A stretch of 64,000 bases of DNA from Gaiellaceae bacterium. GTDB taxonomy: Bacteria > Actinomycetota > Thermoleophilia > Gaiellales > Gaiellaceae. The first letter of the stretch is position 1. Every line of letters starts with the position of its first letter. The notes beneath the pieces are model-generated. The model searched no databases. It was not told the origin of the DNA and saw only the letters and a program-made list of their open reading frames with translations. Made by a program: the position numbers and the translations under genes. Location: positions 15,290-79,289 of the forward strand of contig DASSBN010000013.1 in assembly GCA_035698665.1 (NCBI GenBank), in the 5' to 3' direction. This document shows positions 8,785-43,907 of this stretch, in pieces.

Positions 8785-8813
8785 GCCCTGGTGCCAGGCA
8801 CCGGGACGTGTCT
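8778..8813. repeat. 36-bp imperfect-palindrome element, copy 2 (GGGCCATGCCCTGGTGCCAGGCACCGGGACGTGTCT)
   Basis: Lies 104 bp from copy 1, which is not a multiple of 3. About 31 of 36 positions are identical by hand alignment. Confidence 0.7.
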
Positions 8814-8815
8814 CA

Positions 8816-9840: not shown

Positions 9841-9844
<4 letters not shown>
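8816..9844 (-). CDS. trpD: anthranilate phosphoribosyltransferase
   Basis: 342 aa with DTAGTGGDGAGTFNISTAAA and KHGNRAVSS blocks. Confidence 0.95.
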
Positions 9845-10400
<556 letters not shown>

Positions 10401-19036: not shown

Positions 19037-19755
19037 CCGCCGCTGCCTCGTTCGGGGCAGGTGTGCTGGGCGGCGCCGTCGGCCTCGTTCTGGGCAGCCT
19101 GCGGCTCCCCGCGGTCATCTTCGCCTCCGGCAGCGCCGCAACCGCCGCCGGCACGAACATCGCGGTCAGCGCGGCCTCCGCGCTCACGGCCGGGGTGACG
19201 CACGCACGCGCCGGCCGCGTCGACTGGCGCATCGCCGCCTGGATGACCCCGCCCTCGGTGGCGGCCGCCTTTCTCGGCGGGTACTTCGGCGGGCGCGTGC
19301 CGGAGACGATCTTGCTCTCCGGCATCGCTGCGGCTCTTCTCTGGAACGGGATGCAGCTGCTCTTCGAGCTCGGCGCCCCGCCGCGCGCCCGGGACCCGCG
19401 GCTCGCCGCGGTGGTCGCCGGCGGGATCATCGGACTCATCGGCGGAGCGGTCGGACTCATCCTCGGGACGCTGCGCATGCCGGCCCTCCTCGGACGGGTG
19501 GGGATGCCCGCCGCGCGCGCGGTGGGCACGAACCTCGTCGTGGGCTTCTTCCTCGGCATGGCCGGCTTTGCGGGGCACGTCGTTCAGAGCGAGGTTGACT
19601 GGCCCGTTTTGGCGGTCAGCGTCGCGGCGGCCGTACCCGGCGCCTGGCTCGGGGCCCGGCTGACAGGGCGCATGTCCGAGCGCGTCCTCAAGCGGGCGAT
19701 CGGCGCGGTTCTCGTCGCGGTCGGAATCGCGATCGCGGTCGAGGCGGCGCTCTAG
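19012..19755 (+). CDS. TauE/SafE-family sulfite/anion exporter membrane protein
   Basis: The tail of track ORF 18361..19755 encodes repeated Gly-rich TM helices (GAGVLGGAVGLVLGSLRLP, GGIIGLIGGAVGLILGTLRMP). There is no in-frame ATG, so the start is either CTG 19012 or GTG 19063. Confidence 0.7.
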   Translation: MEAWQLALAAAASFGAGVLGGAVGLVLGSLRLPAVIFASGSAATAAGTNIAVSAASALTAGVTHARAGRVDWRIAAWMTPPSVAAAFLGGYFGGRVPETILLSGIAAALLWNGMQLLFELGAPPRARDPRLAAVVAGGIIGLIGGAVGLILGTLRMPALLGRVGMPAARAVGTNLVVGFFLGMAGFAGHVVQSEVDWPVLAVSVAAAVPGAWLGARLTGRMSERVLKRAIGAVLVAVGIAIAVEAAL

Positions 19756-31700: not shown

Positions 31701-33950
31701 GGGGAAGGTCGTCGTCGAAGACGGCTCGGCCGTGTCGACCGTCCACGTGTAGCTGGCCGCCGAGCCGTCGGTGTTCCCGGCTCCGTCAGTGCTTCGCACC
31801 TGAAAGGAGTGACTGCCGTCGGAGAGCGGGCCCGCGTAGCTCTTCGGGCTCGTGCACGCGGTGTAGCCGCCGCCGTCGAGCTGGCACTCGAAGGTCGAGC
31901 CGCCCTCCGTCGAGGAGAAGCTGAAGCTCGCGCTCGTGGAGGTCGTGGGGTCGGCGGGGTTCGCCGTGATCGATGTGTTCGGTGCCGCGGTGTCGATCGT
32001 GAAGGAGCGGCTCGCCGGCGCCTCGACGAGCGAGACGTTGTCCGTCGCGCGCACTCGGATCGTGTAGCTGCCATCCGCGGGGAAGCTCGAAGCCGGAAAG
32101 GTGTACGACCAGTTGCCGGCCGAGAGGGAGGTCGTGTTCCAGACCTCGCTCGCGCTCGAGAAGGAGCCGGCGCTCCAGTAGTTGCCTGCGCCCTGGCGAA
32201 TGGAGATCTCGACCTTCTGGACTCCCGAGCCGTTGGCGCCGTCGCCGTAGGTGCCGCAGAAGCCGTTGGTGGCGCAGCCGGCGTTCCAGCCCGCGGCGTT
32301 GTACGTGCCGCTCGCGGAGGGGAACGTGGTCGTCGACGTCGGCGCGTTGTTGTCGATCCGCCGGTTCGAGATGGTCGCCGAGTTTGCGGTGTTGCCGGCG
32401 CCGTCTGTGGCGACCGCGCGCAGGTCGTAGAGGCCGTCGCCGACTGCGGTCGTGTCGAAGGAGACCGAGTACGGGGAGGTCGTGTCTGCGGCGCCGACGT
32501 TCGTCCAGGTGCCCGCGCCCGCAGGCGAGCGCTGGAACTGCACCGACGCGACGTATGAGTCGGCATCGCTCGCAGCCGAGGTCTGCAGCGTGATCGTGCC
32601 GGTGACAGGCGAGCCCGGATCGCTCAACGTCACGCTCGGGGCGACGTCGTCGACGTGGAAGGCCGCCTGATGCGCATACACGCGCGCCGAAACGGTCGAG
32701 GTCGCGCTCGCGTTGCCGGTAGCTCCCGCGGTCACCTGGATCTTGTCCGCAGTCGAGGCGCTGATCCCCGTCGTATTGACGTCGCCGCGCTCGTTCCACC
32801 CGGTCGGGGGCGTGTAGGTCGAGTTGCTCGCGCTGCCGAAGAAGGCGAGCACGATGTCGTCGTTCGCCGTCGTCGTGATGCTATTCGCCGTCACCGTCGT
32901 CGTGTTGTTCGTGCTCACGACCGTGCCGGGCAGGTCGAGGGGCGCGCTCGACTTGACGCCGTAGTACGCAGTCACCGTGGCGGCGGCCGCCTGGGCGCCC
33001 GTCCAGGTGAACGAGTAGGAGGCGGGCTCCGACCCGCCCGCGATCTTGTAGAAGCTCGCCTGCGTGGCCTGGTTCGCTGACGTGCCCGAGGCGACCGCCG
33101 TCCAGCCCGATCCGGCCACGGTGGACGTGACGTTCCCGGTCACCATCACGTGGGCGACGAGGAGGTCATTCGCCTGGACGCCGGCGGGTTTGTTCACCGT
33201 CACCGACGTGCCGCTCGCCTGCGTCCCGGTCAGCGTGGCGCGGTGCGTGACGGCCGGGTCGATGACGTAGGGGAGCGGGAGCCCGGAGTCGTCGAGGCGA
33301 AGCGTCAGCCACCAGCTGCCGTTCCGCTGTTCGACGCCCCAGCGCAGGCCGTTGGGGGTGATGTCGTCGCCCTGGGCGTCGAGGATCGCGACGGGCGCGA
33401 TCGAGACGTCGGTGAGCTTGTGCAGCTTCGTGTCGAGGAACGCGACGGCGCCGTCGTCTCCGACGCGCGGAATCTGGGCCGTGTCGATCTTCCAGTGCCA
33501 CGTGCGCAGGCCCTGCCGTTCCCGGATGGTGAGGAACTGCTCGAGCGTGGGGCCGTCGACGAGGATCGTCTCGGCGCCGACTGCGGTCGGGCGCGAAACG
33601 CCGTTTTCGAAGTGATGCCAGTCGCCCGCCTCGGCGCCCTGCGTCGAGAGCGTGACCGTGGCGTTCCGGCTGCGGATGCGGAAGCTCGAGTCGTCGATCG
33701 CGAGCTCGACACCCGGCTGCGGGTGCCGCACGAGCGGAGCCTCGGACTCGGCTGCGCCGAGCGCATCTTCCAAAAACGCCGGCGGTGCCCCGGAGCGCGT
33801 CGCCCCGCCGAGTTGCAGGACGGCCATGAAGACCGCAGCCGCAAGGGCCGCGAGCGCCGCCAGCCGCACCGGCGATGCGCTGCGCAAAACGGCGACACGC
33901 TCGGCCTCCGCCGAGCGCTCACCGGGCCGCAGTTCCGGAAAGTTCGTCAT
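19752..33950 (-). CDS. giant (4,732 aa) repeat-rich cell-surface protein: N-terminal signal anchor, arrays of Ig-like modules, FN3, PASTA, Pro-rich spacer, C-terminal TM
   Basis: A single uninterrupted 14.2 kb frame with consistent GC3. Module families are visible by eye (8 GFCGTY-type and about 11 TWTVD-type, among others). Confidence 0.9.
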   Translation of the reverse strand: MTNFPELRPGERSAEAERVAVLRSASPVRLAALAALAAAVFMAVLQLGGATRSGAPPAFLEDALGAAESEAPLVRHPQPGVELAIDDSSFRIRSRNATVTLSTQGAEAGDWHHFENGVSRPTAVGAETILVDGPTLEQFLTIRERQGLRTWHWKIDTAQIPRVGDDGAVAFLDTKLHKLTDVSIAPVAILDAQGDDITPNGLRWGVEQRNGSWWLTLRLDDSGLPLPYVIDPAVTHRATLTGTQASGTSVTVNKPAGVQANDLLVAHVMVTGNVTSTVAGSGWTAVASGTSANQATQASFYKIAGGSEPASYSFTWTGAQAAAATVTAYYGVKSSAPLDLPGTVVSTNNTTTVTANSITTTANDDIVLAFFGSASNSTYTPPTGWNERGDVNTTGISASTADKIQVTAGATGNASATSTVSARVYAHQAAFHVDDVAPSVTLSDPGSPVTGTITLQTSAASDADSYVASVQFQRSPAGAGTWTNVGAADTTSPYSVSFDTTAVGDGLYDLRAVATDGAGNTANSATISNRRIDNNAPTSTTTFPSASGTYNAAGWNAGCATNGFCGTYGDGANGSGVQKVEISIRQGAGNYWSAGSFSSASEVWNTTSLSAGNWSYTFPASSFPADGSYTIRVRATDNVSLVEAPASRSFTIDTAAPNTSITANPADPTTSTSASFSFSSTEGGSTFECQLDGGGYTACTSPKSYAGPLSDGSHSFQVRSTDGAGNTDGSAASYTWTVDTAEPSSTTTFPGSGATYSTSGWNGGCATNGFCGTYSDGVGGSGVQKVEISIRQGAGNYWSAGSFSSASEVWNTTSLSAGNWSYTFPASSFPADGSYTIRVRATDNVSLAESPSSRSFTIDRTAPNTTIDSNPSDPTSSTSASFSFSSTEGGSTFACQLDGGGYSACTSPKSYAGPLGQGSHTFTVRATDGAGNTDGTPATYTWTVDSVAPSSATTFPASAANYTTSGWNAGCATIGFCGTYSDATSGVQKVEISIRQGSGNYWSAGSFSSAGEVWNTASLSGGNWSYAFSAASFPADGSYTIRVRATDNATNVESPSSRSFSYDATAPNTIIDSNPADPSSSANASFTFSSTEGSSTFECELDGGGFSSCSSPKSYSSLAEGSHTFKVRATDQAGNTDATPAQFTWTVDTVAPATTIDSSPSLTSNSAAATFTFSSTEGSSTFECELDGGGFSSCSSPKNYSGLAEGSHTFKVRATDQAGNVDATPAQFTWTVDTVNPSAVFTFPASGANYDGTGWGAGCATAGFCGTYSDATSGVQGVEISIRQGTGNYWNGTTFGSATEVFQTATTGGGDWSYAFPASSFPAGGSYTVHVRATDNAGNTETGPSRTFTYDTTPPETTIDSNPSDPSTSADATFTFSADEGGSTFACELDGGGFSACTSPKNYSSLAEGSHTFKVRSTDGAGNTDPTPAQFTWTVDTVAPSSTTSFPASGGKYNASGWDAGCATVGFCGTYSDATSGVQKVEISIRRGSGNYWNGSAFASAGEVWNLAGLSGGDWSYALSTTDFPADGSYTIRVKATDNAGNGETPASRSFTYDTADPSALFSFPASGGDYANAAWDAGCATAGFCGTYSDTTAGVQAVEISIRRGSGNYWNGTSFGSASEVFQTASLSGGNWSYDFAAAGFPADGSYTVHVRATDNASNTEPGPSRTFRIDNANPSAAFSFPASGGAYADSGWNAGCATSGFCGTYSDATSGVQAVDVSIRRVGTGLYWNGSAFSSGSEDFQAASLAGGNWTYALPASSFPADGSYTVHIRATDNAGNSETGPSRSFTIDNVAPNAAIDSGPSDPSASADATFEFSADEGGSTFECELDGGGFSACTSPKTYTSLSDGSHTFKVRSTDAAGNTDATPAELTWSVDTAAPSSSVSFPGAGAFYHTSTWNAGCTPAGFCGTYSDATSGVQKVELSIKRLGTGLYWNGSAFSSGSELFFTTALSAGDWSYAFGAASFPVDDDYTVRVKATDNADNAESPSTRTFTFDATDPTGSLTAPANGAAVSGNAVTVSSDSADAGSGVALATFERRPSGGGSWTTIATDGSAPYSVDWDTTALADGDYDLRVTTDDESGNSFSSATRTVTVDNTNPSSATLDALPGAISNGQALTGSGADSGSGVASLSYYFCPGPPCSPSTLIGSSSTGPSYSVTWSSQPADGDYQVLVRVADRAGNTLDSTKQTVTVDNTDPTGSLTAPADTAQVSGTVAVSSDSDDSGSGVASAAFQRRPAGGGSWTTIATDTTDPYSVSWDTTPLGDGDYDLRVLTTDAAGNSFSSATRTVSVDNHAPTVSITAPGAYVNGAAADPFTVTATSPDTDIASVEFFVCDNQSANCSTGSWDSLGAPDTTAPYTASWDVLGDGNQALRAIITDNASNTGSDVVSTLVDRTDPTGSVTSPTGGAFLSGTVSVSSDSDDAGSGAVSALFERRPAGGGTWTAIDTDTSSPYSVSWDTSALNGDFDLHVVTTDAAGNTHTSAALTVTVDSTAPSAPVISLSESSPHAFVSGQTIFVDTGQSGSYDVSATSSDAQSGIEKIRFPGGSDDFTSPYEASYGFGALSGSQTVTSYNGSGLTASDTFTVTPDTTGPSAFSLTAPGAGDSIADGQTVSASPGDAGSGIDTVEFRYCAGSSCSFSSGTAIGAPDSAAPYSVAWSGQPADGTYTIVARATDNVGNATDSAERTVSVDNTGPSSVLSVNEGTRSDLQYFDSATDTYYYNPAATGDFTLHDVASDPAGVASVDFAAIADTGFSGSAKSDTSFPYDSNTYTFTTGSASAPATQAVVVTDALGNATNDSFDLVRDVTAPTGGSVTYTDGYDADGDVVVSTADGNDTGAGVDGSSGVLERRTSALTDGSCGSFSGGWTPVTSPDSVTSGECAQYRYRVFDRVGNEAIYTSGSVVQVDLSAPSGPALTLSESSAWAFVSGTTVYLNTAQAGSYDVDATTDDAQSGIDQVSFPAGQDDATSPYQATYAFGDLSGSQTVTAENGAGLTASSSFTVTSDTAAPTGGSVTYADGYDADGQVTISTSDGNDALSGVDASSGILESRTSALSDGSCAGFAGGWTTVTSPDTVATGTCAQYRYRVSDNVGNEAVYSSGNVVKVDTSGPATPVISLSESSPHAFVSGQTIFVDTGQSGSYDVSATSSDAQSGIEKIRFPGTTDDFTSPYEASYGFGALSGSQTVTAYSNAGLTASDTFTVTPDTTDPSTTDDTGTIGSAWRNAPVTVTLSPSDGGAGLAATYYTTDGSVPTTSSAQGTSVDLTSNGVYTVKYFSVDRVGNAEPVQTASTQIRIDQTDPSAPALTLGESSPYAHVVGTTIYVQTGQSGTYTVAATSNDPLSGIAKIAFPGGVDDSASPYQTIYALGDLAGTQTVTAHDDAGNTSSSTFDATADDDAPLGGSVTYADGYDADGQVTISTSNGTDALSGVDASSGVLERRTSALTDGTCAAFAGGWTTVTGPDTVATDTCAEYRYRVFDNVSNEAIYTSGNIVKVDQTAPNTSIGSTPGDPTNATGASFTFSATETGSTFECELDGGGFTSCTSPKSYAGLAEGSHTFKVRATDIAGNTDSSPAQFTWTVDTSEPNTSIGSTPSDPTSAADADFTFDSSEGGSTFECELDGGGFTSCTSPKSYSGLADGSHSFNVRSTDIAGNTDASPAQFTWAVDTSAPNTTIDVSPADPDSSPNPSFEFSSSEGSSTFECELDGGGFTSCTSPKSYSGLADGSHTFQVRSTDQAGNTDATPASYTWSVNAGAPTVSITAPSGFVNLADADPFTVSATSPDGDVAGVEFFSCSDASNDCSSGSWVSLGSDAAAPYTASWPLPADGNAALRAVATDVGTNTGEDVLNVTVDRTRPVTSIDSAPSDPTSATGASFDFSGSEGGVGFECRLDGGSFGPCASPKSYSSLAEGTHTFDVQATDAAGNAEATPQTHTWTVDTTAPDTSITATPSDPSASPSADFSFTSTEGGSSFECRLDGGVFAACADPASYTGLADGSHTFRVRATDIAGNTDGSAAVYTWTLDATAPGGGLTDPGSPLRRTVGLSASPSDSGVGVQQVVFQSSPADAGTWSDIAIDTTSPYTADWDTTGVADGLYDLRIVVTDNASNTAASAVLEDRLVDNTDPIASMDDPGAYLSGTVNLTSTTGDSGSGVASVTYQRSPAGANTWTTVSATWNTTGVADGLYDLRVRVTDNAGNATTSAAVVDRRVDNTAPALASSAPSDGSNVTAAGSLAVTANEDLADVFASDIDGSSVAGVATGATVTFTQAFAPGPHTLSGELEDLAGNRTPIRVHFTVWNTTGGDYPYTEKNSFASSAMTVAATNGVGQLHIPAGAWSGAPAGDWLVAKVDPQSAGAVASGFSAEGDVYDVSAYWALSGGAVTSFDEPIELTLTNGAGNVVPAFLNGSAWQPIARLSGTTLPESMQQGFYKDGDTVHLLTRSADSFMLLRDLVAPTKPKSFKGKSVSGRLVLSWKASTDSSGLVDAYLVYVNGTLAQTLGSSTLSVDMGAFSQKDARSFQVAARDAAGNVSAKTPALVVVPKVANMPLAKAKKALTKRGLKAGKLTYVFSSVPKGSVVAAGKSGLTARGSAVPLKVSKGRAARTSDTGSGTTTPPPAYQPPTYQPPTSPPPVTTPPSSAPPTDSPPTGGDPIDPTAGGAAGAGAAEPESFNQSEVSSARRTAGLVLLAGLFLGAGAMVLRARRRLIPPVARAEALDGPILFWDERLVRSTASALRRAFAALGR
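19887..19943 (-). other. C-terminal TM segment of the giant protein, followed by RARRR and a ~45-aa tail
   Basis: TAGLVLLAGLFLGAGAMVL, then RARRRLIPP... Confidence 0.7.
20187..20369 (-). other. PASTA-like domain of the giant protein
   Basis: VVPKVANMPLAKAKKALTKRGLKAGKLTYVFSSVPKGSVVAAGKSGLTARGSAVPLKVSKG fits the PASTA pattern VPxVxGxxxxxAxxxLxxxGLxxG...VxxGxVxxxxPxxGxxxxxGxxVxLxVSxG. Confidence 0.6.
20370..20630 (-). other. fibronectin type III-like domain of the giant protein (approximate)
   Basis: PTKPKSFKGKSVSGRLVLSWKASTDSSGLVDAYLVYVNG..SFQVAARDAAGNVS follows the FN3 pattern. Confidence 0.6.
21900..23485 (-). repeat. second array of B-type (FECxLDGG...TWTVD) modules (approximate bounds)
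   Basis: Five further B-type modules, interrupted by one Ig-like module with the VEFF(S/V)C motif. Confidence 0.75.
27965..32345 (-). repeat. alternating A/B Ig-like module array inside the giant gene (approximate bounds)
   Basis: A modules are about 100 aa: FPxSGxxY..GWNAGCATxGFCGTYSD..GVQKVEISIRxGxGNYW..FPADGSYTxxVRATDN. B modules are about 85-100 aa: PNTxIxSxPxDP..FxFSSTEGxSTFECxLDGGGFxxCxSPKxY..GSHTFxVRxTDxAGNxD..TWTVDT. Confidence 0.8.
33810..33869 (-). other. N-terminal signal-anchor/TM segment of the giant protein
   Basis: VRLAALAALAAAVFMAVLQL (aa ~28-47), preceded by charged residues. Confidence 0.7.
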
Positions 33951-34741: not shown

Positions 34742-36406
34742 ATGGCGACAGCGGAGGAACGGAGGCGCGCCCTCGCCACCGACGAGTGGCGGCGTGCGCT
34801 CTACGAGCGAAGCCCGGAGCGCGACGGGCTCTTCACGACGATCTCGGGGCTCGAGAACGAGCCGCTCTACACGCCTGACCAGGTCGCGATCGACTACGAC
34901 CGCGATCTCGGCTACCCCGGCGCGTTTCCGTACACGCGAGGCGTCTATCCATCGATGTACCGCGGCCGCCTCTGGACGATGCGGCAGTTCGCCGGCTTCG
35001 GCACCGCCGAGGAGACGAACGCGCGCTTCCGCTATCTGCTCGACCACGGTCAGACGGGGCTCTCGACGGCCTTCGACATGCCCACGCTGATGGGGTACGA
35101 CTCCGACCACGCGAGATCGCTCGGCGAGGTCGGGCGGGAGGGGGTCGCGATCGACTCCCTCGAGGACATGGAGCACCTCTTCGCCGGGATCCCGCTCGGC
35201 GAGGTCTCGACGTCCATGACGATCAACGCGCCCGCGGCGATGCTCCTCGCCTTCTACATCTGCGTCGCCGAGGAGCAGGGCGTCCCGCAGGACCGTCTGC
35301 GCGGCACGATCCAGACCGACATCCTCAAGGAGTACATCGCGCAGAAGGAGTGGATCTTTCCGCCGGAGCCCTCGATGCGGCTCTGCGTGGACATGATCGA
35401 GTACTGCGCGCGCAACGTCCCGCTCTGGCATCCGGTCTCCATCTCCGGCTACCACATCCGCGAGGCGGGCTCGACCGCGGCCCAGGAGCTCGCCTTCACG
35501 CTCGCCGACGGGTTCGCGTACGTCGAGGCCGGGATCGAGCGAGGCCTCGACGTCGACGACTTCGCACCGCGGCTCTCCTTCTTCTTCAACGCGCACATCG
35601 ACTTCTTCGAAGAGGTCGCGAAGTACCGCGCCGCCCGGAGGATCTGGGCGAAGGAGCTGCGCGAGCGCTACGGGGCCAAGAACCCGCGCTCGTGGCTCAT
35701 GCGCTTCCATGCGCAGACCGCCGGCGTGTCGCTCACGGCGCAGCAGCCCGAGGTGAACATCGTGCGCACCGCGCTCGAGGCGCTCGCAGCCGTTCTCGGC
35801 GGCTGCCAGTCGCTGCACACGAACTCCTTCGACGAGGCGCTCGCACTTCCGACCGAGCACGCCGTCAAGCTCGCCCTGCGCACGCAGCAGGTGATCGCCC
35901 ACGAGACCGGCGTGGCGAGCACCATCGACCCGCTCGGCGGCTCCTACTACCTCGAGGACCTGACCAACAGGCTCGAACAGGAGGCCTACGACTACTTCGG
36001 GCGCATCCGCGATCTCGGCGGGGTGGTCGAGGCGATCAAGGAGAACTTCTTCCAGCGCGAGATCGCCGAGGCGTCCTTCCGGTTCCAGAGCGAGGTCGAG
36101 TCCGGTGACCGCGTGATCGTCGGAGTCAACCGCTACGGGGATCCCGACGAGCGCGAGATCGAGATCTTGAAGATCGACGAGGCGCTCGAGCTGAAGCAGG
36201 TCGAGCGCGTCCGAGCTCTCCGCGCCCGGCGCGACTCCGCCGCGGTCGAATCGGCGCTCGCCCGGCTCAAGCGCGACGCGGCCGAGGCCGACACCAACCT
36301 CATGCCGGCGATCATCGACGCCTCCCGCGCCTACGTGACGATGGGCGAGATGTGCGACGCCCTCCGAGGTGTGTGGGGGGTGTGGCGTGAGACTCCCGTT
36401 TTTTGA
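34742..36406 (+). CDS. methylmalonyl-CoA mutase family, catalytic (substrate-binding TIM barrel) subunit
   Basis: 554 aa with [33 protein letters not shown] and [10 protein letters not shown] blocks. It has no B12-binding domain, which is encoded separately at 43500. Confidence 0.95.
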
Positions 36407-36497: not shown

Positions 36498-37127
36498 ATG
36501 GGCAGCAACGGAAACCTGCTCTCGATCGAGGGCCTCAGCCGGCGCTTCGGCGCGAAGGAGGTCGTGCGCTCGCTCGACCTCTCGGTCGCACCGGGCCAGC
36601 GAGTGGCTCTCTGGGGGCCGAACGGTTCCGGGAAGAGCACCGTTCTCCGTTGCGTCGCCGGGACGCTCACCCCGTCGGCCGGCTCGGTTCACGTCGGCGG
36701 GCACCTGGCCGGCGAGCTCGCCGCACGCCGACTCGTGGGCGCGTCGCTCGCCCAGGAGCGCTCGTTCTACCTTCGGCTCAGCGGCAGGACGAACCTCCTC
36801 TTCTTCGCCCGTATCCGCTACGACGACAGACGTGAGGGGTCGCGCGCAGTCGACGGGCTCATCGAGGAGCTCGAGATCGCGGACATCGCCGCCACACGGG
36901 TCGACCGCTGCTCGACCGGGATGGTGCAGCAGCTGGGCATCGCTCGCGCGCTTCTCGGAGACCCGTCCGTGCTCCTGCTGGATGAGCCGACCCGGTCGCT
37001 CGACGCCGATGCGAGAGGCCGCCTGTGGGGGGCTCTCGGGCGTCGTCCTCATGCCGCCGCCCTGATCGCAACACACCTCGACGAGGACCTGAACCTTTGT
37101 GACGAGCGCGTTTCCTTTCCCGTTTAG
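36498..37127 (+). CDS. ABC transporter ATP-binding protein
   Basis: Walker A GPNGSGKST, signature CSTGMVQQL, Walker B LLLDEPT. GAGG ribosome-binding site before the ATG. Confidence 0.9.
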   Translation: MGSNGNLLSIEGLSRRFGAKEVVRSLDLSVAPGQRVALWGPNGSGKSTVLRCVAGTLTPSAGSVHVGGHLAGELAARRLVGASLAQERSFYLRLSGRTNLLFFARIRYDDRREGSRAVDGLIEELEIADIAATRVDRCSTGMVQQLGIARALLGDPSVLLLDEPTRSLDADARGRLWGALGRRPHAAALIATHLDEDLNLCDERVSFPV

Positions 37128-37926
37128 CGTCCCGCGCCTGGGCGTGATCGTGGCACTTGTTCGCCGCGACTACCTCGTGCAGCGCTCCTACCGGCTGGTC
37201 TTCGCGCTCGACCTCTTCTACGGGGTGGTCAACCTGCTCGTCTTCTACTTCATCTCGAAGACGTTCGATGAGACGACGGCCGACCTGAACGGGGCGCCGA
37301 GCTACTTCGCATTTGCTTCGATCGGCATCGCGATCACGATCGTCCTGCAAGCGGCCAGCGGTGGGCTCGCCCACCGGATTCGGGAGGAGCAGCTCACCGG
37401 CACCCTGGAGGCGCTGACCGCGCAACCCATCACGGTCTCCGAGCTCGCCTTCGGCCTCGCGTCGTTCCAGTTCGGCTTCGGAATGCTGCGCGCGGCGTTC
37501 TATCTGCTTCTGAGCGGGCTGTTCTTCGGCGTCGGCTACGAGAACGCCGACTGGGTCGGCTTCGTCACTGTCCTCCTCGCTTCCGGCGCAGCGCTCGCAA
37601 GCATCGGGGTCATCCTCGGTGCGCTCGTCCTGGTGCTCAAGCGAGGAGAGATCCTGACCGGCGCGGTGACGTTTGCCATGGGCCTCGTCAGCGGTGCGTT
37701 CTTCCCGGTCGCCGTCCTGCCGTCCTGGCTCCAGGCGATCGGCTCGATCATGCCCACCCGCTTTGCCTACGACGGCCTGCGCTCGGCGATCTTCGAAGGC
37801 GGGGGATGGGGCGGCGACGCGCTGGCGCTGATCGTCTTCGCCGTCATCGGGCTCCCGATCGGGGTGTTGTGTTTCAACCGCGGGCTGCTGCAATCCCGCC
37901 GAGCGGGCACGATCTCCCAGTACTGA
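37099..37926 (+). CDS. ABC-2-type transporter permease
   Basis: 275 aa with about 6 TM segments, immediately downstream of the ATPase gene. The start is uncertain, with GTG alternatives up to about 37150. Confidence 0.8.
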   Translation: MTSAFPFPFSVPRLGVIVALVRRDYLVQRSYRLVFALDLFYGVVNLLVFYFISKTFDETTADLNGAPSYFAFASIGIAITIVLQAASGGLAHRIREEQLTGTLEALTAQPITVSELAFGLASFQFGFGMLRAAFYLLLSGLFFGVGYENADWVGFVTVLLASGAALASIGVILGALVLVLKRGEILTGAVTFAMGLVSGAFFPVAVLPSWLQAIGSIMPTRFAYDGLRSAIFEGGGWGGDALALIVFAVIGLPIGVLCFNRGLLQSRRAGTISQY

Positions 37927-37929
37927 ACG

Positions 37930-38844
37930 ATGAGCGCTCCCGGCGACAATCGCCTCGCGCTCGCTGCCGCCCGCCGGTTGACGCTCGATGCAACGGCGGC
38001 GCGGGTCGTGCGGGCGATGAAGGAAGCCGACGTCCGCGTGATCTTGTTGAAGGGCCCGACGCTCTCGGAGCTCTACGACGGCGCCCGCCAGTACAGCGAC
38101 GTCGATCTGCTCGTCGCGCCGGAGAGCATGCGGACGGCCGAAGAGGCCCTCGCCGGCCTCGGTTTCGTTCTGCGCGACGACGATCCGCACAGCCGCATCT
38201 GGTGGCGCGAAGGGGTGGACGTCGATCTGCACTCGGCGCTCGTCGGCGTGCAGGTGAGCCCTCCGCGCCTTTGGGAGGTCCTGGGTGCGGAAACCGAGGT
38301 TCACGTCGTCGGCGACGAGCAAGTCGAGGTCCTGAAAGGGCCTGCGCGCGCACTGCACGTCGTGCTGCACGCCGCACAGCACGGGCTGCAGGAGGCGAAG
38401 CCACGCGAGGACCTCCGCAGGGCGCTCGAGCGGATTCCGGAGGACACGTGGGCCGACGCGACTCGGCTCGCGGCGGCACTGGACGCTCAGGCGGCTTTTT
38501 GGACAGGGCTCAGCATGGAGCCGGCCGGCCGGGAGCTGTCGTCCAAGCTGGAGCTCGAAAAAGGCCCCTCTCGGACCGAGACGGAGCTGCGTGCCTCGAC
38601 CGCGCCCCCGACGGCGGTCGGCCTCCTTCGGCTTGCCGAGACACCAGGTCTCGGAGCGAAGCTACGACTGATCTGGCGGGAGGCTTTTCCGTCCTCTGCG
38701 TACCTGCGCACGTGGTCGCGGCTCGCGAGACGCGGCCGGACCGGGCTGGCGCTCGCTCACGTCTGGAGGCCGATCTGGATCCTCATCCGCCTCGGTCCCG
38801 CGCTCGCCGCGATCATGCGGGCGCGGCGGGCGGCCCGGAGGTAA
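37930..38844 (+). CDS. uncharacterised nucleotidyltransferase family protein (PF14907-like)
   Basis: The N-terminal pattern RVILLKGPTLSELYDGARQYSDVDLLV..A...L...GF is typical of this family, which recurs in RiPP and lasso clusters. Confidence 0.7.
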   Translation: MSAPGDNRLALAAARRLTLDATAARVVRAMKEADVRVILLKGPTLSELYDGARQYSDVDLLVAPESMRTAEEALAGLGFVLRDDDPHSRIWWREGVDVDLHSALVGVQVSPPRLWEVLGAETEVHVVGDEQVEVLKGPARALHVVLHAAQHGLQEAKPREDLRRALERIPEDTWADATRLAAALDAQAAFWTGLSMEPAGRELSSKLELEKGPSRTETELRASTAPPTAVGLLRLAETPGLGAKLRLIWREAFPSSAYLRTWSRLARRGRTGLALAHVWRPIWILIRLGPALAAIMRARRAARR

Positions 38845-39307
38845 CTGGGTCGGGAAGGGGGCATCGTTGCCCGTCGAGGTCGAAGGCGATGATCGGAACG
38901 AGGTTCTCGAGTGTCGCCTCCGTGTCGTGCGCGGCCTCGCCGCGGAGCGTCAGCCACGCATGGCCAGGCGGCCCGTCGTCTCCCTTGCGCACGCCGAGGA
39001 CGAGACGTGAATCTTCGTTTCCGGCGGGGAGGTAGCGGTAGGTGATCAGGCTACGCTCGAGGCAGTTGTCCCGGAGAGCGCCCGTCTTGTAGGCCCACCG
39101 CGCCAGCGTGACGACGACCGCCGATCTCCGTTGGTCCGGAGCGTGCCTGTGCCTCGGAGCCATCAAGCCGACGAGCTGGGGGAGGGGCATGATCCGCTTG
39201 AGCAGGGGCAGGGCGGCCGCCCAGAGGAACATGCGAAGGGCGAGCCAGAGCTCACCCGGCCCCGACACGACTGTACGGATCCGCGAAGTGCGGGAGGGCT
39301 CGCTCAT
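38813..39307 (-). CDS. lasso peptide biosynthesis B2 protein (transglutaminase-like Cys protease)
   Basis: NCLERSLITYRYL...LVLGVRKG...GHAWLTLRGE carries the Cys/His catalytic pattern of PF13471. ATGA overlap with the upstream kinase gene. Confidence 0.85.
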   Translation of the reverse strand: MSEPSRTSRIRTVVSGPGELWLALRMFLWAAALPLLKRIMPLPQLVGLMAPRHRHAPDQRRSAVVVTLARWAYKTGALRDNCLERSLITYRYLPAGNEDSRLVLGVRKGDDGPPGHAWLTLRGEAAHDTEATLENLVPIIAFDLDGQRCPLPDPVTSGPPAAPA

Positions 39308-40155
39308 GCCGCCTCGGGGATGAGAACCCGTTCGATCTCGCCCAGCAGCCGCGGAAGCTCCTCGAGCGTGGCCGTGAAGCGAACCTCGTAGACGGGAACG
39401 CGCCCCGCGAGCTCGAGGTACGCCGCGACCGTGCTGCGCCTGAGCTCATCCTCGAGGAGCGTGAAGCAGTACGCATGGGGAAGGAGCATCCGAATCACGT
39501 CGTCGGCGGCGAGGCGCCGTAGCTCGACACCCCTCCCTTCCTCTTGCCGGCTGAGAATGCAGAGGGCTGCCAGCGGCATGCCCTTCCCTCCGACCGTGAT
39601 TCGCCCGTCCTCGTCGAGGACCGGCGCCGGTGGCACCGGGACGTCGAAATACGCTGCGGATGCCGGCCGGAGGCGCACCGAGAACGGCAGCTCGTGCACC
39701 CGGATGCCGGAGCTCGAAGTCTCGAACGCGAGCGCGTCGTCGGCGCAGACGCGGTAACCCCTCCCCGCAAGCCCGAAGGCGATCGTCGACTTGCCGGTCT
39801 GCGAGTCCGCGCAAAACCCGATGACGCCGCCGGGGGACTCGATCGCACTCGCGTGCAGCACCTGGCGTCCGAGCAGTTGCAGCGTCATCGGCGCGATCGT
39901 GCGGCGGTACGTGTCGATCACCAGGTCGTCCGAGGCGCCTTCGTTCGGTACCGCGAGGATCTCCCCATCTGTTCCGGAGCGAAAGGCACCGACGACGGGA
40001 AGGTACGCCCAGTATTCGTTTCCGGCGCGGTAGAAGTACGCGGAGGGGATGCCCGCGTAGTCCACCCAGACCAGGGTCGAAGGGTCGCTTTCGTCCGGCA
40101 AAGGCGCATCGATCGTGCCGCGCTCCGCGATCGCAAGCGTGAGTGTGGTGGTCAT
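39304..40155 (-). CDS. HPr kinase/phosphorylase-like protein (lasso-peptide kinase type)
   Basis: LHASAIESPGGVIGFCADSQTGKSTIAFGLAGRGYRVCADDALAF matches the P-loop core of the HprK C-terminal domain. Confidence 0.8.
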   Translation of the reverse strand: MTTTLTLAIAERGTIDAPLPDESDPSTLVWVDYAGIPSAYFYRAGNEYWAYLPVVGAFRSGTDGEILAVPNEGASDDLVIDTYRRTIAPMTLQLLGRQVLHASAIESPGGVIGFCADSQTGKSTIAFGLAGRGYRVCADDALAFETSSSGIRVHELPFSVRLRPASAAYFDVPVPPAPVLDEDGRITVGGKGMPLAALCILSRQEEGRGVELRRLAADDVIRMLLPHAYCFTLLEDELRRSTVAAYLELAGRVPVYEVRFTATLEELPRLLGEIERVLIPEAA

Positions 40156-40174
40156 TCCGTCACAGGGTACGCAG

Positions 40175-40215
40175 CCGCCCGGCCCGTCTCCCGTCGAGGA
40201 GACGAAACCGGGCGG
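40175..40215 (-). promoter_or_regulatory. interrupted 15-bp stem-loop between the precursor gene and the tailoring genes
   Basis: The outer stem pairs CCGCCCGG (40175-82) with CCGGGCGG (40208-15). The inner stem pairs CGTCTCC (40185-91) with GGAGACG (40198-204), with a 6-nt loop. No U-tract follows. Confidence 0.5.
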
Positions 40216-40234
40216 TGACTAAGCGATTGACGTG

Positions 40235-40405
40235 CTATTCCTGGCCGTGAGGCTTCAGGTTCGGCTCGCCCGGATCTGCTGGGCTCGGAACGGACTTGCC
40301 GTTTGCCGGACCCCCGGCGCTGCCCCCCTGCATCACGCTGGCAACGTCTCCGAGGGAGCGAAGCTCCATCGGCTCCCACGTCGACAGACTTCTCTCGAAC
40401 GTCAT
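40235..40405 (-). CDS. candidate lasso peptide precursor (56 aa)
   Basis: Not in the ORF track. A GGAGGAGG ribosome-binding site lies 8 nt upstream of the ATG at 40405, which is 21 nt after the cyclase stop. Peptide: MTFERSLSTWEPMELRSLGDVASVMQGGSAGGPANGKSVPSPADPGEPNLKPHGQE. It carries a leader-like PxxLxxxG motif. Confidence 0.6.
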   Translation of the reverse strand: MTFERSLSTWEPMELRSLGDVASVMQGGSAGGPANGKSVPSPADPGEPNLKPHGQE

Positions 40406-40426
40406 CGCTTTGTCACCTCCTCCGAT

Positions 40427-42304
40427 CTAGCTCCACTGACGAGCCCATGCTTCGAGATTGAGCACGCTCCACAACTTGTGAGCGAGCATTGAAAACTCGA
40501 GAACGCTGGAACCGTCACCTCTTTCTCTCCCTTGCAACCGGTTAAGTGAAGACCGGAACGCTGATTGTAGGGCGTGTCCGTCAACAATTCCACTCGACGA
40601 AAGTGTGGGCGCCCCCTGGTACTCCTCCCAGGCGCGCGGAATCTGGGCGGTGAGCGTCGAGGTCGAGAAATCGGTGATGAGAACCTTCTTCTGGTCCTCG
40701 AATCCCGCCTCGGGGAAGCGCCTCGCGAGCGTGCCGCGGAGAATTCCCTTCGCACGGTGTCCTTCGTGCAGCAGCCGCGGCGGAGTGCGGAGGAGAAAAT
40801 CGACGACGCCCGGGTCCCAAAACGGCATGAAAGGCTCGAAACCGAGCCGTCTCCCTCGTTCGAAGGCCTCTTCGCGCTCCATTGCCACGACGACGTTCTC
40901 GAAATACGGCACGACGCCGCTGAGGTAGGAGCCCTGGCTGTGGCGCCCCTGTGTCCAGCGGATGGCGCGCTCCTCCACCTGACGCGCAAGCTCTTGGTCG
41001 GGAGCGAGCCACTCGTCCATGCGCTCGTGCAGCCGCTGCCGGCGATGGTCATCGAGCCTCCCCGGCGCGAGGCGGCCGACGACGCCTCGCCCCGCGTCCT
41101 TGAGCACGACCTTCGTCCCGTATCTCCAGAGGAGGTTCCGGAGCATCGGCCACTTCCGCACGGTGTACGAGTTGCGGTACGTGAGCCAGAAGTGGTGGAG
41201 CTCACGGAGGTGGAAGCCGCGCATGCAGTCGGCGGCCCACATGGGGGCCACCGAGAGCCATTCGTCCCCGCCCGCGCCGGTGAGCACCGTCTTCGCTCCC
41301 TGGGCGCGCCCTTTCCGAGCGAGGTGGGTGTAGAGCGGGTGCCAGATGTTCACGAGGGGCATCGGCCAGGTGCCCGTCGTCCGGAGAGCCTCGAGCACGA
41401 GCCCGTTCGAACCCTCGGCCTCGGCGAACGAGACGACCGTCTGGGGCATTCCGAGCTGACTCGCCACGCGCCTCTGAATGGGCTCTTCGTTGAAGTTCGG
41501 GTCGGGGAAGACGAGGGAGAGCGCGATCGGTGCTTCCAATCCCTTCGCCTCGGCGCCGTCGGCCGCGTACATGGCCACGGCCACGGAGTCGATTCCGCCG
41601 CTCAGGAAGATCGACGGCCTGCCGACCACAAGGGCCCGGTCGAGCGCCTGTTCCAAGAGCGTCGAAAGGTGCGGCAGATCGGCCTCCGTGGTCCACTGCA
41701 CTTCTTCCTCGCTCGGCGCGGGATCCCAGTACCGAGACGTCGTGATCCCGGTGTCGTTCGCTGTGAGCGCCGTTCCGGCCGGGATCCGGCGAATCGTTTC
41801 GAAATACGTCTCCGACGGGTCGAGGTGATAGTTGACGAGCGACTCGGCCAGCGCGGGGCGGTTGAGCGTTCCCGGTACCTGGTCTGCACGAGCGAGAGCG
41901 ACGATGGAGTCCGAGAAGTACCAGGCGCCGTCGAGCCCCTTCGCGTAGAAAAGCGGGTGCTGGCCGAGAGCATCCCGAGCGGCGAGCACGGTGTCGGAGC
42001 GGGCATCCCAGAGGGCCAGTGCGAAGACGCCGTCGATCCGCTTCAAGACCTCCGGGCCGATCTCGAGGTAGGCACGGAGGACGAGCTCCGCTGGCCCGCT
42101 TCCGGGGTCGACGCCTGCAACGCGCGCGAGCTCGTCCGGGTTGAAGAGGTGGCCGTCGAAGACCGCGAGGCCCAAGTCGCTTCGCGCGATGGCGGCGCCC
42201 GCCGGCCCCGGCGTGACCCTGGGCTCTCCCTCCCTTGGCCGGTAGCGCAGGGAAAACGACGAGGTGTCGGGCGCCGACTCGGGCGCCTCGAGCGCGACTG
42301 CCAC
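40427..42304 (-). CDS. lasso peptide cyclase (asparagine synthetase-like, C protein)
   Basis: GVFALALWDARSDTVLAARDALGQHPLFY followed by the PP-loop FLSGGIDSVAVA. The GTG start at 42304 was chosen, 2 nt after the B1 stop. The track start at 42457 lies inside the B1 gene. Confidence 0.9.
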   Translation of the reverse strand: MAVALEAPESAPDTSSFSLRYRPREGEPRVTPGPAGAAIARSDLGLAVFDGHLFNPDELARVAGVDPGSGPAELVLRAYLEIGPEVLKRIDGVFALALWDARSDTVLAARDALGQHPLFYAKGLDGAWYFSDSIVALARADQVPGTLNRPALAESLVNYHLDPSETYFETIRRIPAGTALTANDTGITTSRYWDPAPSEEEVQWTTEADLPHLSTLLEQALDRALVVGRPSIFLSGGIDSVAVAMYAADGAEAKGLEAPIALSLVFPDPNFNEEPIQRRVASQLGMPQTVVSFAEAEGSNGLVLEALRTTGTWPMPLVNIWHPLYTHLARKGRAQGAKTVLTGAGGDEWLSVAPMWAADCMRGFHLRELHHFWLTYRNSYTVRKWPMLRNLLWRYGTKVVLKDAGRGVVGRLAPGRLDDHRRQRLHERMDEWLAPDQELARQVEERAIRWTQGRHSQGSYLSGVVPYFENVVVAMEREEAFERGRRLGFEPFMPFWDPGVVDFLLRTPPRLLHEGHRAKGILRGTLARRFPEAGFEDQKKVLITDFSTSTLTAQIPRAWEEYQGAPTLSSSGIVDGHALQSAFRSSLNRLQGRERGDGSSVLEFSMLAHKLWSVLNLEAWARQWS

Positions 42305-42306
42305 CC

Positions 42307-42657
42307 TCAGCTGCCTGCCAGGAGGAGCTTCTTCTCGACGAGTTCCGCGATCAGGGTGTCGATCTCCTCGCGAAGCTGGTCGGGCGGCACGTCGAATTCT
42401 TGGAGGAGGGCAGCCTGAACCTCGTCGCGGTTCGAGCCGGAGGCGAGCATGTCCCACGCGCGCGTCGCAGTCGGATTCAGCGCGTAGATTTCGTTCGTCT
42501 GAAGATGGACGAGGACGGTCTCGCCCTCGACGAGCTGAGTCACCACGTCTGGATCAGGGCGCCAATTGCCCTTGGGATCGGACACCTCGAAGCCGCCTTG
42601 ATCGTCGGTCACGTTTCGGAGAAGGAAATGCTGATCGGTCTCACCCGTTCGAACCAC
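42307..42657 (-). CDS. PqqD-family RiPP recognition element protein (lasso B1)
   Basis: LVEGETVLVHLQTNEIYALNPTATRAWDML..EVQAALLQEFDV..LREEIDTLIAELVEKKLL. GTG start. An N-terminal extension of about 35 aa may not be translated. Confidence 0.8.
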   Translation of the reverse strand: MVRTGETDQHFLLRNVTDDQGGFEVSDPKGNWRPDPDVVTQLVEGETVLVHLQTNEIYALNPTATRAWDMLASGSNRDEVQAALLQEFDVPPDQLREEIDTLIAELVEKKLLLAGS

Positions 42658-42739
42658 TCACACTGATTCTTCGTGTCTCAGTCGTGGTTCGCCCGCAGGC
42701 GAAGAACTCCTAGGATCATGCGACCGAGGGGGTGGGTTG

Positions 42740-43483
42740 TCAATCGCCGGGCTCGCCGGAGATGTCGACCACGAGCCCGTCCTTCGCGATCTGCACGCCG
42801 TCCGGCACCGGCAGCTCGACGGGCCTGTGCGTGAGGAGGATCGGTCCGTCCGCCGCGGCGAGGGCCTCGTCGGCCGAGAGGTGGCCGCGCGGCTGGCCGT
42901 CCTTGTCCGGTTGCGCCAATGTCGCCTCGCAGACGAAGAGGTCCGCCCCGCGTGCGAGTTCGGAGAGCTGCTCGGTCGGCGCGGAGTCGCCCGAGTAGGC
43001 GAGCACACTGTTGCCCTCGCGCACGCGGAAGCCGTAGGCCTCCATTGTGTAATGCGGGAGCCTGTGCGCCTCGACCTCGAAGCCGGCTGCCTCGAAGGGA
43101 GTCTCCGGCTCGAACTCGTGGAGGTCGAACGCCGAGTCGAACATCCCCGGGTTTCCGAAGTTCGCCGCGAAGGCATCCAGCTGGCCGCGCCCGCCGGGCG
43201 GAAGCCAGACGGTGCAGGGGATGTGCTCGTTGGGCGGGCCGTACGCGTTCAGCCAGGCCCACGGAACCAGGTCGCCCCAGTGGTCGAGGTGAAAGTGCGT
43301 GATCGCCGCGGCGCCGACGCTCGCCCCGCCGTTCGCGCGCAGGCGCGCGAGCACCCCCGGGCCGCAGTCGAGGAGAAGGCTCCTGCGCGGCTCGGCACTC
43401 GTCTCGACGAGGTAGCCGGACTGGGCGCTGCCGGGGTTCGGCCAGGCCGGGGATGACCCGATGACGGTGAGGCGCACGTTCAT
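42740..43483 (-). CDS. MBL-fold metallo-hydrolase
   Basis: MNVRLTVIGSS.., THFHLDHWGD (HxHxDH motif). The ATG at 43483 was chosen over the track start at 43612. Confidence 0.85.
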   Translation of the reverse strand: MNVRLTVIGSSPAWPNPGSAQSGYLVETSAEPRRSLLLDCGPGVLARLRANGGASVGAAAITHFHLDHWGDLVPWAWLNAYGPPNEHIPCTVWLPPGGRGQLDAFAANFGNPGMFDSAFDLHEFEPETPFEAAGFEVEAHRLPHYTMEAYGFRVREGNSVLAYSGDSAPTEQLSELARGADLFVCEATLAQPDKDGQPRGHLSADEALAAADGPILLTHRPVELPVPDGVQIAKDGLVVDISGEPGD

Positions 43484-43499
43484 ATACTGACCGACCGGT

Positions 43500-43907
43500 A
43501 TGAATCGCGAGCGCAAGATCAGGGTCGTCATTGCAAAACCCGGGTTGGATGGCCACGACCGCGGCGCGAAGATCATCGCGCGCGCGCTCCGCGACGCGGG
43601 CATGGAGGTCATCTACACGGGTCTTCACCAGACCCCGGAGCAGATCGTCGAGACCGCCATCCAGGAGGACGCGGACGCCGTCGGCATCTCGATCCTGTCG
43701 GGGGCCCACATGACGCTCGTCCCGAAGATCCTCGAAGGGTTGAAGGAGAACGGTGTCGACGACGTCGTGGTGGTCGTCGGCGGCACGATCCCGAAGCCGG
43801 ACGTCGAGGAGCTGAAGCGGCAAGGCGTTGCGGAGGTCTTCACCCCCGGAGCGCCCATGTCCGAGATCGTCGACTTCCTCCGCGAGCGAGTTCCGGTCAC
43901 GCGGTGA
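43500..43907 (+). CDS. methylmalonyl-CoA mutase family, cobalamin-binding subunit
   Basis: [18 protein letters not shown] (DxHxxG B12-binding motif), GISILSGAH and VVGGTIP. Confidence 0.95.

Follow-up and report, generated by a model that had tools for sequence, protein, structure and literature searches.

The window analysed here is a stretch of 64,000 nucleotides from Gaiellaceae bacterium, an actinobacterium of soil that is uncultured (assembly GCA_035698665.1, contig DASSBN010000013.1, positions 15,290 to 79,289 of the forward strand), and all coordinates below are counted from its first letter unless another locus is named. At about 36.5–42.7 kb it carries an island of about 6.2 kb, which is a real lasso peptide cluster with kinase and nucleotidyltransferase tailoring genes, where both the enzymes and the precursor were confirmed. 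With a probability of about 0.62 it is read as a class II-type split-B lasso island with two tailoring enzymes and its own exporter, in which the precursor would be cut before an invariant Gly-Lys pair, closed by a ring between Gly1 and Asp9, and phosphorylated on Ser3. This reading is carried by the identities of the genes, their intact catalytic motifs, a gene set and a precursor that are both conserved in related loci, and the selection acting on the precursor. A previous sequence-only reading of this DNA had proposed a split-B lasso cluster in which an HprK-type kinase is accompanied by a nucleotidyltransferase of the PF14907 type, and this proposal held for every enzyme in hidden Markov model (HMM), profile, and fold comparisons.

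Genes and enzymes of the cluster

The island consists of three overlapping or abutting genes on the plus strand (ABC ATPase, ABC-2 permease, and PF14907 nucleotidyltransferase) and five genes on the minus strand (B1, C, precursor A, kinase K, and B2, in the order of reading), which converge on the plus-strand trio:

36498..37127, plus strand: ABC transporter ATPase subunit, 209 amino acids (aa), exporter/immunity; PF00005 (ABC_tran), E 6e-26; DrrA-like in NCBIfam
37099..37926, plus strand: ABC-2 type permease subunit, 275 aa; PF01061 (ABC2_membrane), E 7e-16; DrrB-like
37930-38844, plus strand: PF14907 (NTP_transf_5) nucleotidyltransferase N, 304 aa; E 1.5e-28
38813-39307, minus strand: transglutaminase-like leader peptidase B2, 164 aa; NF033537 lasso_biosyn_B2; PF13471 (Transglut_core3), E 5e-10
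39304-40155, minus strand: HprK-like peptide kinase K, 283 aa; active-site alignment, profile and fold matches
40175..40215, minus strand: GC-rich RNA stem-loop of 18 bp just after the precursor stop and before the kinase start; −42.9 kcal/mol, z −3.4
40235-40405, minus strand: precursor peptide A, 56 aa, MTFERSLSTWEPMELRSLGDVASVMQ-GGSAGGPAN-GKSVPSPADPGEPNLKPHGQE; Shine-Dalgarno GGAGGAGG upstream; conserved homologues
40427-42304, minus strand: Asn-synthetase-like lasso cyclase C, about 625 aa; PF00733, E 3e-28
42307-42657, minus strand: B1, PqqD-like recognition element for peptides made by the ribosome and modified after translation (RiPPs), up to 116 aa, start uncertain; PF05402, E 5e-17

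On the minus strand K and B2 overlap by 4 nt, while gaps of 21 nt and 79 nt separate C from A and A from K, and the B1 stop lies 2 nt from the assumed GTG start of C. The ATPase and permease genes overlap by 29 nt, and the 3' ends of the nucleotidyltransferase and B2 genes overlap by 32 nt.

The split-B enzymes were found where the sequence-only reading had placed them, and the outcome that would have spoken against it, an absence of significant HMM matches for B1, B2, and C, did not arise: all three pass family models. B1 scored 62.5 bits with PF05402 (cut-off 23.4) and 46.6 bits (E 3e-12) with the lasso-specific PqqD model NF033530, under its cut-off of 70. B2 passes the curated lasso B2 cut-off of NF033537 (45.4 bits vs 33), and its catalytic Cys (CLERSL) and His (HAWL) are kept in 58/59 and 59/59 homologues, respectively; an Asp 12 residues past the His was read directly in the window protein. 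The cyclase C reached 100 bits with PF00733 (cut-off 21) and 116 bits (E 1.5e-33) with the lasso cyclase model NF033535, whose cut-off of 525 was not reached. Its PP-loop SGGIDS was read directly, a glutaminase nucleophile is absent since there is no Cys at position 2, and its nearest relatives of solved structure are AsnB-family enzymes. The longest open reading frame (ORF) of C has 676 aa and runs into B1; the GTG at 42304, giving 625 aa, is the likely start.

The presence of an HprK-type kinase, also claimed from the sequence alone, depends on several lines of evidence, as the Pfam match to Hpr_kinase_C is weak (E 4e-3). A family profile of 16 members found HPr(Ser) kinases as top PDB matches (E 1.6e-4), and the AlphaFold (AF2) model of the kinase, with a mean confidence (pLDDT) of 89.5, matches the HprK/P and phosphoenolpyruvate carboxykinase (PEPCK) folds. 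Further, His101, Lys122, Ser123, Asp139, and Asp140 align with H148, K169, S170, D186, and D187 of BsfK, the importance of which was demonstrated by mutagenesis (PMC10368454), and the H/GK/DD residues are kept in about 76 of 81 homologues. The His-Lys-Asp-Asp HPr-kinase homologue that characterizes paeninodin-type systems is thereby present in the cluster. Assignment to Haft's HprK-related kinase A and B families was rejected, since K scored 24 and 19 bits against cut-offs of 200. A 100% identical kinase occurs in a metagenome-assembled genome (MAG) of Gaiellaceae (Thermoleophilia, Actinomycetota).

The nucleotidyltransferase N, the feature expected of a pseudomycoidin-type cluster, is a member of PF14907 with 100.5 bits vs a cut-off of 31.2, in agreement with what had been noticed in the sequence, and its motifs K-G, D-x-D, and [DE]-L-H are present in 48/48 full-length family members. 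In regard to the exporter, both genes of the two-component ABC-2 system seen by the sequence-only reading were confirmed by PF00005 and PF01061, but the exporter type is probably no peculiarity: two-component ABC exporters are ordinary in actinobacterial lasso clusters.

The precursor peptide

The 56-aa ORF is a genuine conserved precursor, and codon comparisons indicate that it is under purifying selection. Compared with relative L005, whose kinase is 86% identical, it has 7 nucleotide differences, of which 7 are synonymous and 0 non-synonymous, and in comparison with L001 and L006 the differences cluster at third codon positions. In more than 40 loci from several phyla a homologue is found between C and K; thus the role of the ORF as precursor, first proposed from the single sequence, is upheld by position and sequence conserved across phyla and by selection on codons, and related neighbourhoods consistently devoid of a precursor-like ORF were not what was met. 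None of the NCBIfam models matches the peptide, and the word-indexed search with the 56 residues returned close relatives only. A metagenome scan with the degenerate pattern WEPM...DPG[DE] gave mostly chance matches, with at least about 13 true precursors among the matches listed.

The anatomy of the precursor was studied in 38 distinct peptides, and it begins with a leader block of 17 residues, W-E-P-M-x-L-x-x-[VL]-G-x-V-x-[DE]-V-[VLMI]-[QRL], in which Trp, Leu, and Gly stand in the register W-17, L-12, and G-8 and a hydrophobic residue occupies the place of Thr(−2). In the window the leader W-E-P-M-E-L-R-S-L-G agrees with the lasso motif Y(-17)xxP(-14)xL(-12)xxxG(-8), with Trp for Tyr and Pro one position early, while relatives L003, L021, and L041 have the canonical WExPxLxxxG leader. 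A Thr at the penultimate leader position is missing: the window precursor has Met at the canonical −2 site, or Ala if the cut is before Gly-Lys, and across the family the −2 residue is V/I/L/M or G/A/P at these two sites, respectively.

The leader block is followed by a Gly-rich linker of 3–14 residues (9 in the window), with indels even between close relatives, whereas the stretch from Gly-Lys to Asp keeps a fixed length while the linker varies among close relatives. Gly-Lys is invariant in 38/38 precursors. Counted from its Gly, the Asp stands at position 9 in 30/38 and at position 8 in 8/38, and Ser or Thr occupies core position 3 or 4 in 36/38. For the ring acceptor, expected as Asp or Glu at positions 7–9, this means Asp9 when the window core is counted from Gly-Lys, while from the canonical site the first acidic residue is at position 18. 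The predicted cores have 19–34 aa, mostly 20–21, with a conserved tail P-G-[ED]-P-x-x-K-P-x-G. The window precursor ends in ...HGQE and lacks the C-terminal Ser of the paeninodin type; the family C-termini are E, G, N, L, H, D, K, A, F, P, M, or T, and Ser is never conserved there. The earlier remark that this precursor does not follow the known substrate rule was borne out: the peptide has neither Thr(−2) nor a C-terminal Ser and bears a linker before Gly-Lys. Nothing else in the cluster is of greater interest.

Each of the 38 peptides has either 0 or 2 Cys. In the clade L010-L014, L115, L127, and L140 the linker is longer (12–14 aa) and contains one Cys, while the other is in the tail (…EPC[LY]KPPG…); both Cys are absent from the sister sequences L084 and P0138. 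One metagenomic sequence on a contig of 598 nt, P0135, reads …GPANVKSVP…, with Val for the Gly before Lys, which may be a sequencing error or a natural variant.

The stem-loop behind the precursor gene was more stable than chance, as 0/200 shuffles were as stable, and a hairpin of different sequence is found at the same place in most related Actinomycetota loci. Since a U tract is missing, the hairpin may serve to stabilise, process, or attenuate the transcript; processing and attenuation roles have been proposed for other RiPP operons.

Proposed pathway

Based on the gene set and the precursor family we infer the following order of steps, and also the phospho-site, the nucleotidyltransferase chemistry, the position of the cut, the residues that close the ring, and a threaded topology of the product. 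The PqqD-like B1 would bind the 56-aa precursor via its leader (W-17 E P M E L-12 R S L G-8 ...). The HprK-like kinase, probably aided by B1, would then phosphorylate a ring Ser or Thr of the linear precursor, the proposed site being Ser3 of Gly-Lys-Ser, and the PF14907 nucleotidyltransferase may further decorate the peptide, by analogy with PsmN in pseudomycoidin most likely on that phosphate. B2 is thought to cut before the invariant Gly-Lys, removing both the leader and the Gly-rich linker, after which C would adenylate Asp9 and join it to the amino group of Gly1. The predicted product is a 21-residue lasso peptide, GKSVPSPAD-PGEPNLKPHGQE (core GKSVPSPADPGEPNLKPHGQE), with a nine-residue ring, a 12-residue tail, and a calculated dehydrated mass of 2122.044 Da, to which each phosphate would add 79.966 Da. 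The calculated [M+2H]2+ ion is 1062.029, and an N-dependent adduct would come on top, either a nucleotide or a hexose of 162.053 Da. The two-component ABC-2 transporter would export this product or protect the producer.

The core start was placed at the invariant Gly by analogy with bsf, where BsfA is the precursor; the core GKSGGNMDGE of an Acidobacteriota subgroup of the family resembles the BsfA core GTSGNEVDGS. Conservation of Lys does not require it as a nucleophile, because linker-free relatives hold a conserved Lys at ring position 3. In these relatives (L003 and Acidobacteriaceae precursors of the form G-x-K...D/E, with the acidic residue at 8 or 9) the Lys is internal to a ring of canonical size.

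Alternatives considered

Several points weigh against the pathway as drawn. The leader block conserved in the family reaches precisely to canonical −1, its −2 residue being hydrophobic (Met in the window), and the cut before Gly-Lys needs a B2 reach of 20–31 residues past Trp with Gly, Ala, or Pro at −2; we know of no lasso protease shown to cut at a variable distance with such a small −2 residue. The Cys pair divided between linker and tail in the clade described above suggests that the linker may be in the product, and P0135 has Val at the proposed Gly1. C and B1 are under the NCBIfam curated lasso cut-offs, and the likeness of the kinase to BsfK is restricted to the active-site surroundings (41% over 41 aa). 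Also, Bsf-type B2 cuts at the canonical site, not 9 residues on, and the products of this family and of bsf have never been observed (PMC10368454).

The same leader register is the starting point of a different and rather unlikely mechanism, in which the B2 cut falls behind Val-Met-Gln26, at the canonical site, the Gly-rich stretch is kept, and the epsilon-amine of Lys is joined to the Asp seven residues on. The product would then be a side-chain-to-side-chain ring with two tails, having 30 residues (GGSAGGPANGKSVPSPADPGEPNLKPHGQE) and a dehydrated mass of 2790.332 Da, and in the Cys clade a disulfide would bridge the N-terminal and C-terminal tails. Trp, Leu, and Gly are exactly −17, −12, and −8 from the Gln26 site, where the −2 residue is always hydrophobic, as in the Ile/Val(−2) class, and Ile(−2) is essential for BsfB2 cleavage (PMC10368454). 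The canonical +1 residue is variable (G, F, N, L, I, Q, M, A, V, or S), which is unexpected for a cyclisation residue, while Lys is invariant and its spacing to Asp is fixed (x6 in 30/38, x5 in 8/38). By our own count a Lys-Asp ring would have 26–29 ring atoms (29 for Lys-x6-Asp), to be compared with 22–29 in the known lasso rings of 7–9 residues, and the 0 or 2 Cys in 38/38 peptides, split between linker and tail in one clade, would fit a retained linker. However, the Gly before Lys is as invariant as the Lys itself, the linker-free relatives place Lys inside a canonical-size ring, linker indels among near-identical clusters are typical of a spacer, and the Cys co-occurrence is a single evolutionary event. 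A Lys side chain as substrate of a lasso cyclase has no known case, and a literature search on Lys side-chain isopeptide found none. If true, the Lys closure would be a new topology from a lasso cyclase in more than 1000 uncultured soil lineages; in a weaker form, where the linker is removed and the B2 distance is variable, the system would still break the fixed leader-core register of all studied lasso systems.

Other ring placements fit less well. A ring from the canonical +1 residue was rejected, as the first acidic residue is 12–23 positions off and the distance varies. An Asp at 7–9 inside the linker of the Cys clade is found in L010, L012, L115, and L140 but not in L011, L084, and P0138, and this candidate was rejected as well. 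With a Ser1-Asp7 ring, members of the Acidobacteriota subgroup would have rings of only six residues, and close relatives differ in the residue that follows Lys. For a Lys1-Asp8 ring the invariance of Lys would be the sole argument. Cores starting at Lys1 or Ser1 have calculated masses of 2065.023 and 1936.928 Da, respectively. It is also highly improbable that the cassette acts on another substrate, e.g., a polysaccharide, with the small ORF being incidental. This idea draws on relatives L003 and L004, where the cassette sits within an exopolysaccharide locus, and on the scores of C, B1, and K below the curated lasso or HprK cut-offs. It is contradicted by the conserved position and sequence of the small ORF across phyla, its lasso-type leader motif and purifying selection, by B2, which passes the curated lasso B2 cut-off with Cys and His kept, and by L003 itself, which also carries a precursor with the same leader. 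Cleavage before Gly-Lys and closure from Gly1 to Asp9 are preferred to all these alternatives.

Distribution of the family

For the search of relatives, species-representative genomes were scanned with a 6-sequence kinase alignment, which gave 64 loci, 63 of them labelled MAGs, and their gene content was determined with local iterative HMMs built on HMMER's own alignments. The order B1-C-A-K is kept in most of the 64 loci, with B2 and a PF14907 homologue within a few kb where the flank suffices; the homologue of N was found in most related loci with enough flank. The loci span at least six phyla (Actinomycetota, Acidobacteriota, Chloroflexota, Methylomirabilota, Deinococcota, Planctomycetota, and Pseudomonadota), and their sources include Gaiellaceae, other Thermoleophilia, Solirubrobacterales, Pyrinomonadaceae, other Acidobacteriota, Chloroflexota, Methylomirabilia, Rokubacteria, Trueperaceae, Phycisphaera, and Burkholderiales. 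The ABC ATPase gene accompanies the cluster in Actinomycetota and Chloroflexia loci, where the exporter is of the two-component ABC-2 type, whereas a fused ABC protein is found in Acidobacteriota and Trueperaceae. In an exhaustive profile search the kinase family had 1046 representatives (50% clusters) at E<=1e-30 and 13,268 at E<=1e-10; it is a large and uncharacterised family, not a rare one.

In L003/L004 the cassette (5149-10027) has the order B2-B1-C-A-K-N and lies among glycosyltransferases, Wzz, and Poly_export genes of the exopolysaccharide locus. In its precursor (7782-7982), which shares an overlap with the end of the C gene, the leader is the canonical WEAPTL and a linker is absent; the L003 core starts with A-A-K-T...D9, so that Lys is inside a ring of canonical size. 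In another group of loci from Solirubrobacterales (L053, L058-L063, L065, and L066) each cluster has two paralogous HprK-like kinase genes in the order K-ABC-ABC2-B1-B2-K-C, and no precursor of the WEPM/Gly-Lys type was detected in these two-kinase loci.

Locus layout and neighbouring genes

The G+C content is about 69% across the window. The island is flanked by the split halves of methylmalonyl-CoA mutase, and the following features surround it:

34742-36406 and 43500-43907, plus strand: methylmalonyl-CoA mutase large subunit and B12-binding subunit, about 7 kb apart (lasso island and MBL gene between them)
42715..42743, minus strand: promoter-like site TTGACA-17-CATGAT before B1, 10/12 matches; consensus match only; overlaps the MBL stop codon
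42740-43483, minus strand: MBL fold hydrolase, a flanking Gaiellaceae gene

Two promoter-like sites were found in the region vs 0.3 expected from shuffles. The mutase site behaves as a variable island: in L189 the mutase halves are 1.6 kb apart and without lasso genes, while the cargo after the MBL gene is a different lasso cluster in L190 and unrelated acyl-CoA genes in L191.

The MBL hydrolase had been taken from the sequence as the first gene of the coupled operon, and of this claim the gene and its place stood, while its membership in the operon and cluster did not. It is not coupled to the cluster, because a promoter-like site stands before B1 and the same gene lies beside the mutase B12 subunit in lasso-free Gaiellaceae contigs; in Gaiellaceae it is always head-to-head with the gene of the B12-binding mutase subunit. 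The idea that it belongs to the pathway, e.g., as a phosphodiesterase trimming a nucleotide or phosphate adduct, is improbable, although the gene adjoins B1 and shares its strand, lying 82 nt upstream of the longest B1 ORF, the NCBIfam model that fits it best is a cyclic-nucleotide phosphodiesterase (E 2e-34, under cut-off), and it is beside the cluster in every Gaiellaceae locus of this type. Among the related loci, the local HMMs did not detect it next to the cluster outside the Gaiellaceae-type loci sharing this chromosomal site. Its homologues are about 30 times more numerous than the kinase (4284 matches at E<=1e-20 vs 126 kinase matches at E<=1e-3), in L189 and L191, where lasso genes are absent, it adjoins the gene of the mutase B12 subunit, and its distance to B1 reaches 0.65–2.9 kb in L010-L014 and L027. 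According to its abundance, its lasso-free neighbourhoods, the distance to B1, and the promoter-like site located between the two genes, it was rejected as a cluster member.

The different cluster of Gaiellaceae L190 is a second kind of kinase-linked lasso cluster at the same chromosomal site (precursor at 8264-8446 and genes to 14668 of that locus). Its precursor, MKRSYTRPAVVDYGSISAHTF|ARAQIPTTVCTPDANPHQNKQGDWRICHLDKFCEYSCPS, combines a YxxPxVxxxG leader of canonical form and Thr(−2) with four Cys and a C-terminal Ser, the last following the paeninodin-type rule, and it has no acidic residue at positions 7–9. Elsewhere in the window, a single ORF of 4732 aa at 19752-33950 (minus strand) has many tandem repeats of about 100 aa with recurring motifs, e.g., 'GFCGTYSD...VQKVEISIR' and 'FECELDGGGF'. 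The protein starts with a hydrophobic segment and has, towards its C-terminus, a Pro-rich region and then a hydrophobic anchor, and is thus probably a giant protein of the cell surface.

Comparison with known systems

Among the studied systems, the bsf cluster of Bradymonas sediminis FA350 comes closest, and it includes the genes A, B1, B2, C, D, K, and N (PMC10368454). Its precursor BsfA has Ile at −2, the sole experimentally studied exception to Thr(−2), and a C-terminal Asp instead of Ser, with Gly1-Asp8 as the inferred ring; BsfK phosphorylates core Ser3 on linear BsfA and is strongly stimulated by BsfB1 (PMC10368454). Both systems have the split B1/B2, the cyclase, an HprK-like kinase with H..GKS..DD, a nucleotidyltransferase gene, a hydrophobic residue at the canonical −2 site, and a precursor lacking a C-terminal Ser. 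They would also share Ser at core position 3, for the window only if the core starts at Gly-Lys-Ser. While K, N, B1, B2, and C with hydrophobic −2 and no C-terminal Ser are all found in the window, the agreement with the bsf type as a whole is partial. In BLASTP comparison the kinases are 41% identical over 41 residues, B2 is marginal (E 0.002), and B1 and A gave nothing significant. Gly1 of BsfA follows directly after the canonical site, whereas in the window a 9-residue linker intervenes; the ring is Gly1-Asp8 in BsfA and predicted as Gly1-Asp9 in the window, where Lys2 is invariant in the family; and the exporter is the fused D protein in bsf and a two-component ABC-2 system in the window, whose host is an actinobacterium.

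The paeninodin relatives (PadeK, ThcoK, and SyanK) share with the window a split B and an HPr-kinase homologue acting on the linear precursor (PMC9266682, PMC8498205), and Lys is also common in their ring region (AGPGK in ThcoA/PsmA, AGKGW in PapoA). Their kinases modify a strictly conserved C-terminal Ser, whereas the window precursor ends in Glu, a further difference being that their leaders have Thr(−2) and canonical spacing. The mismatch with the C-terminal-Ser rule already has a precedent, since BsfA has no C-terminal Ser and is phosphorylated on ring Ser3. Pseudomycoidin of Bacillus pseudomycoides (PsmK/PsmN; PMC6993621) is similar in having a kinase and a nucleotidyltransferase-like gene, and PsmN, which adds a hexose to the kinase-installed phosphate (PMC6993621, PMC9266682), served as the model for the role of N; pseudomycoidin is unlike the window in its modified C-terminal Ser, Firmicute source, and fused exporter.

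The kinase-linked Acidobacteriaceae precursors with Ile/Val(−2), described in silico only, resemble the window precursor by the hydrophobic −2 residue and an early conserved Lys with Asp or Glu 5–7 residues later, and one of them, Silvibacterium bohemicum 3, also has an insertion before Gly-Lys (PMC10368454 Suppl. Fig. 14). Unlike the window precursor, most of them have canonical spacing and Lys at position 3, and there is no relationship in the core sequences or in the tails (…AYxADE vs DPGEPxxKP in the window family). Contrary to the sequence-only reading, the precedents are not confined to Firmicutes, considering SyanK from Proteobacteria (PMC8498205) and bsf from Bradymonas sediminis (PMC10368454).

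In summary, studies of kinase and nucleotidyltransferase lasso tailoring cover only a few Firmicutes and Proteobacteria, and a mature product of the ring-phosphorylated type has never been seen. The literature searched on lasso peptides with PF14907 or from Thermoleophilia contained nothing relevant, and as far as it goes, no kinase/nucleotidyltransferase lasso cluster would have been described from Thermoleophilia before this one. The window provides a complete example with intact catalytic motifs, compact at about 6.2 kb, for a large family in mostly uncultured soil bacteria, the precursors of which break three textbook rules: Thr(−2), the fixed distance from recognition motif to cut, and the C-terminal Ser for the kinase. 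Genome-mining tools relying on such rules (RODEO-type scoring) may miss these precursors. The cluster type itself is known, and the window cluster works like the kinase/nucleotidyltransferase lasso clusters already described.

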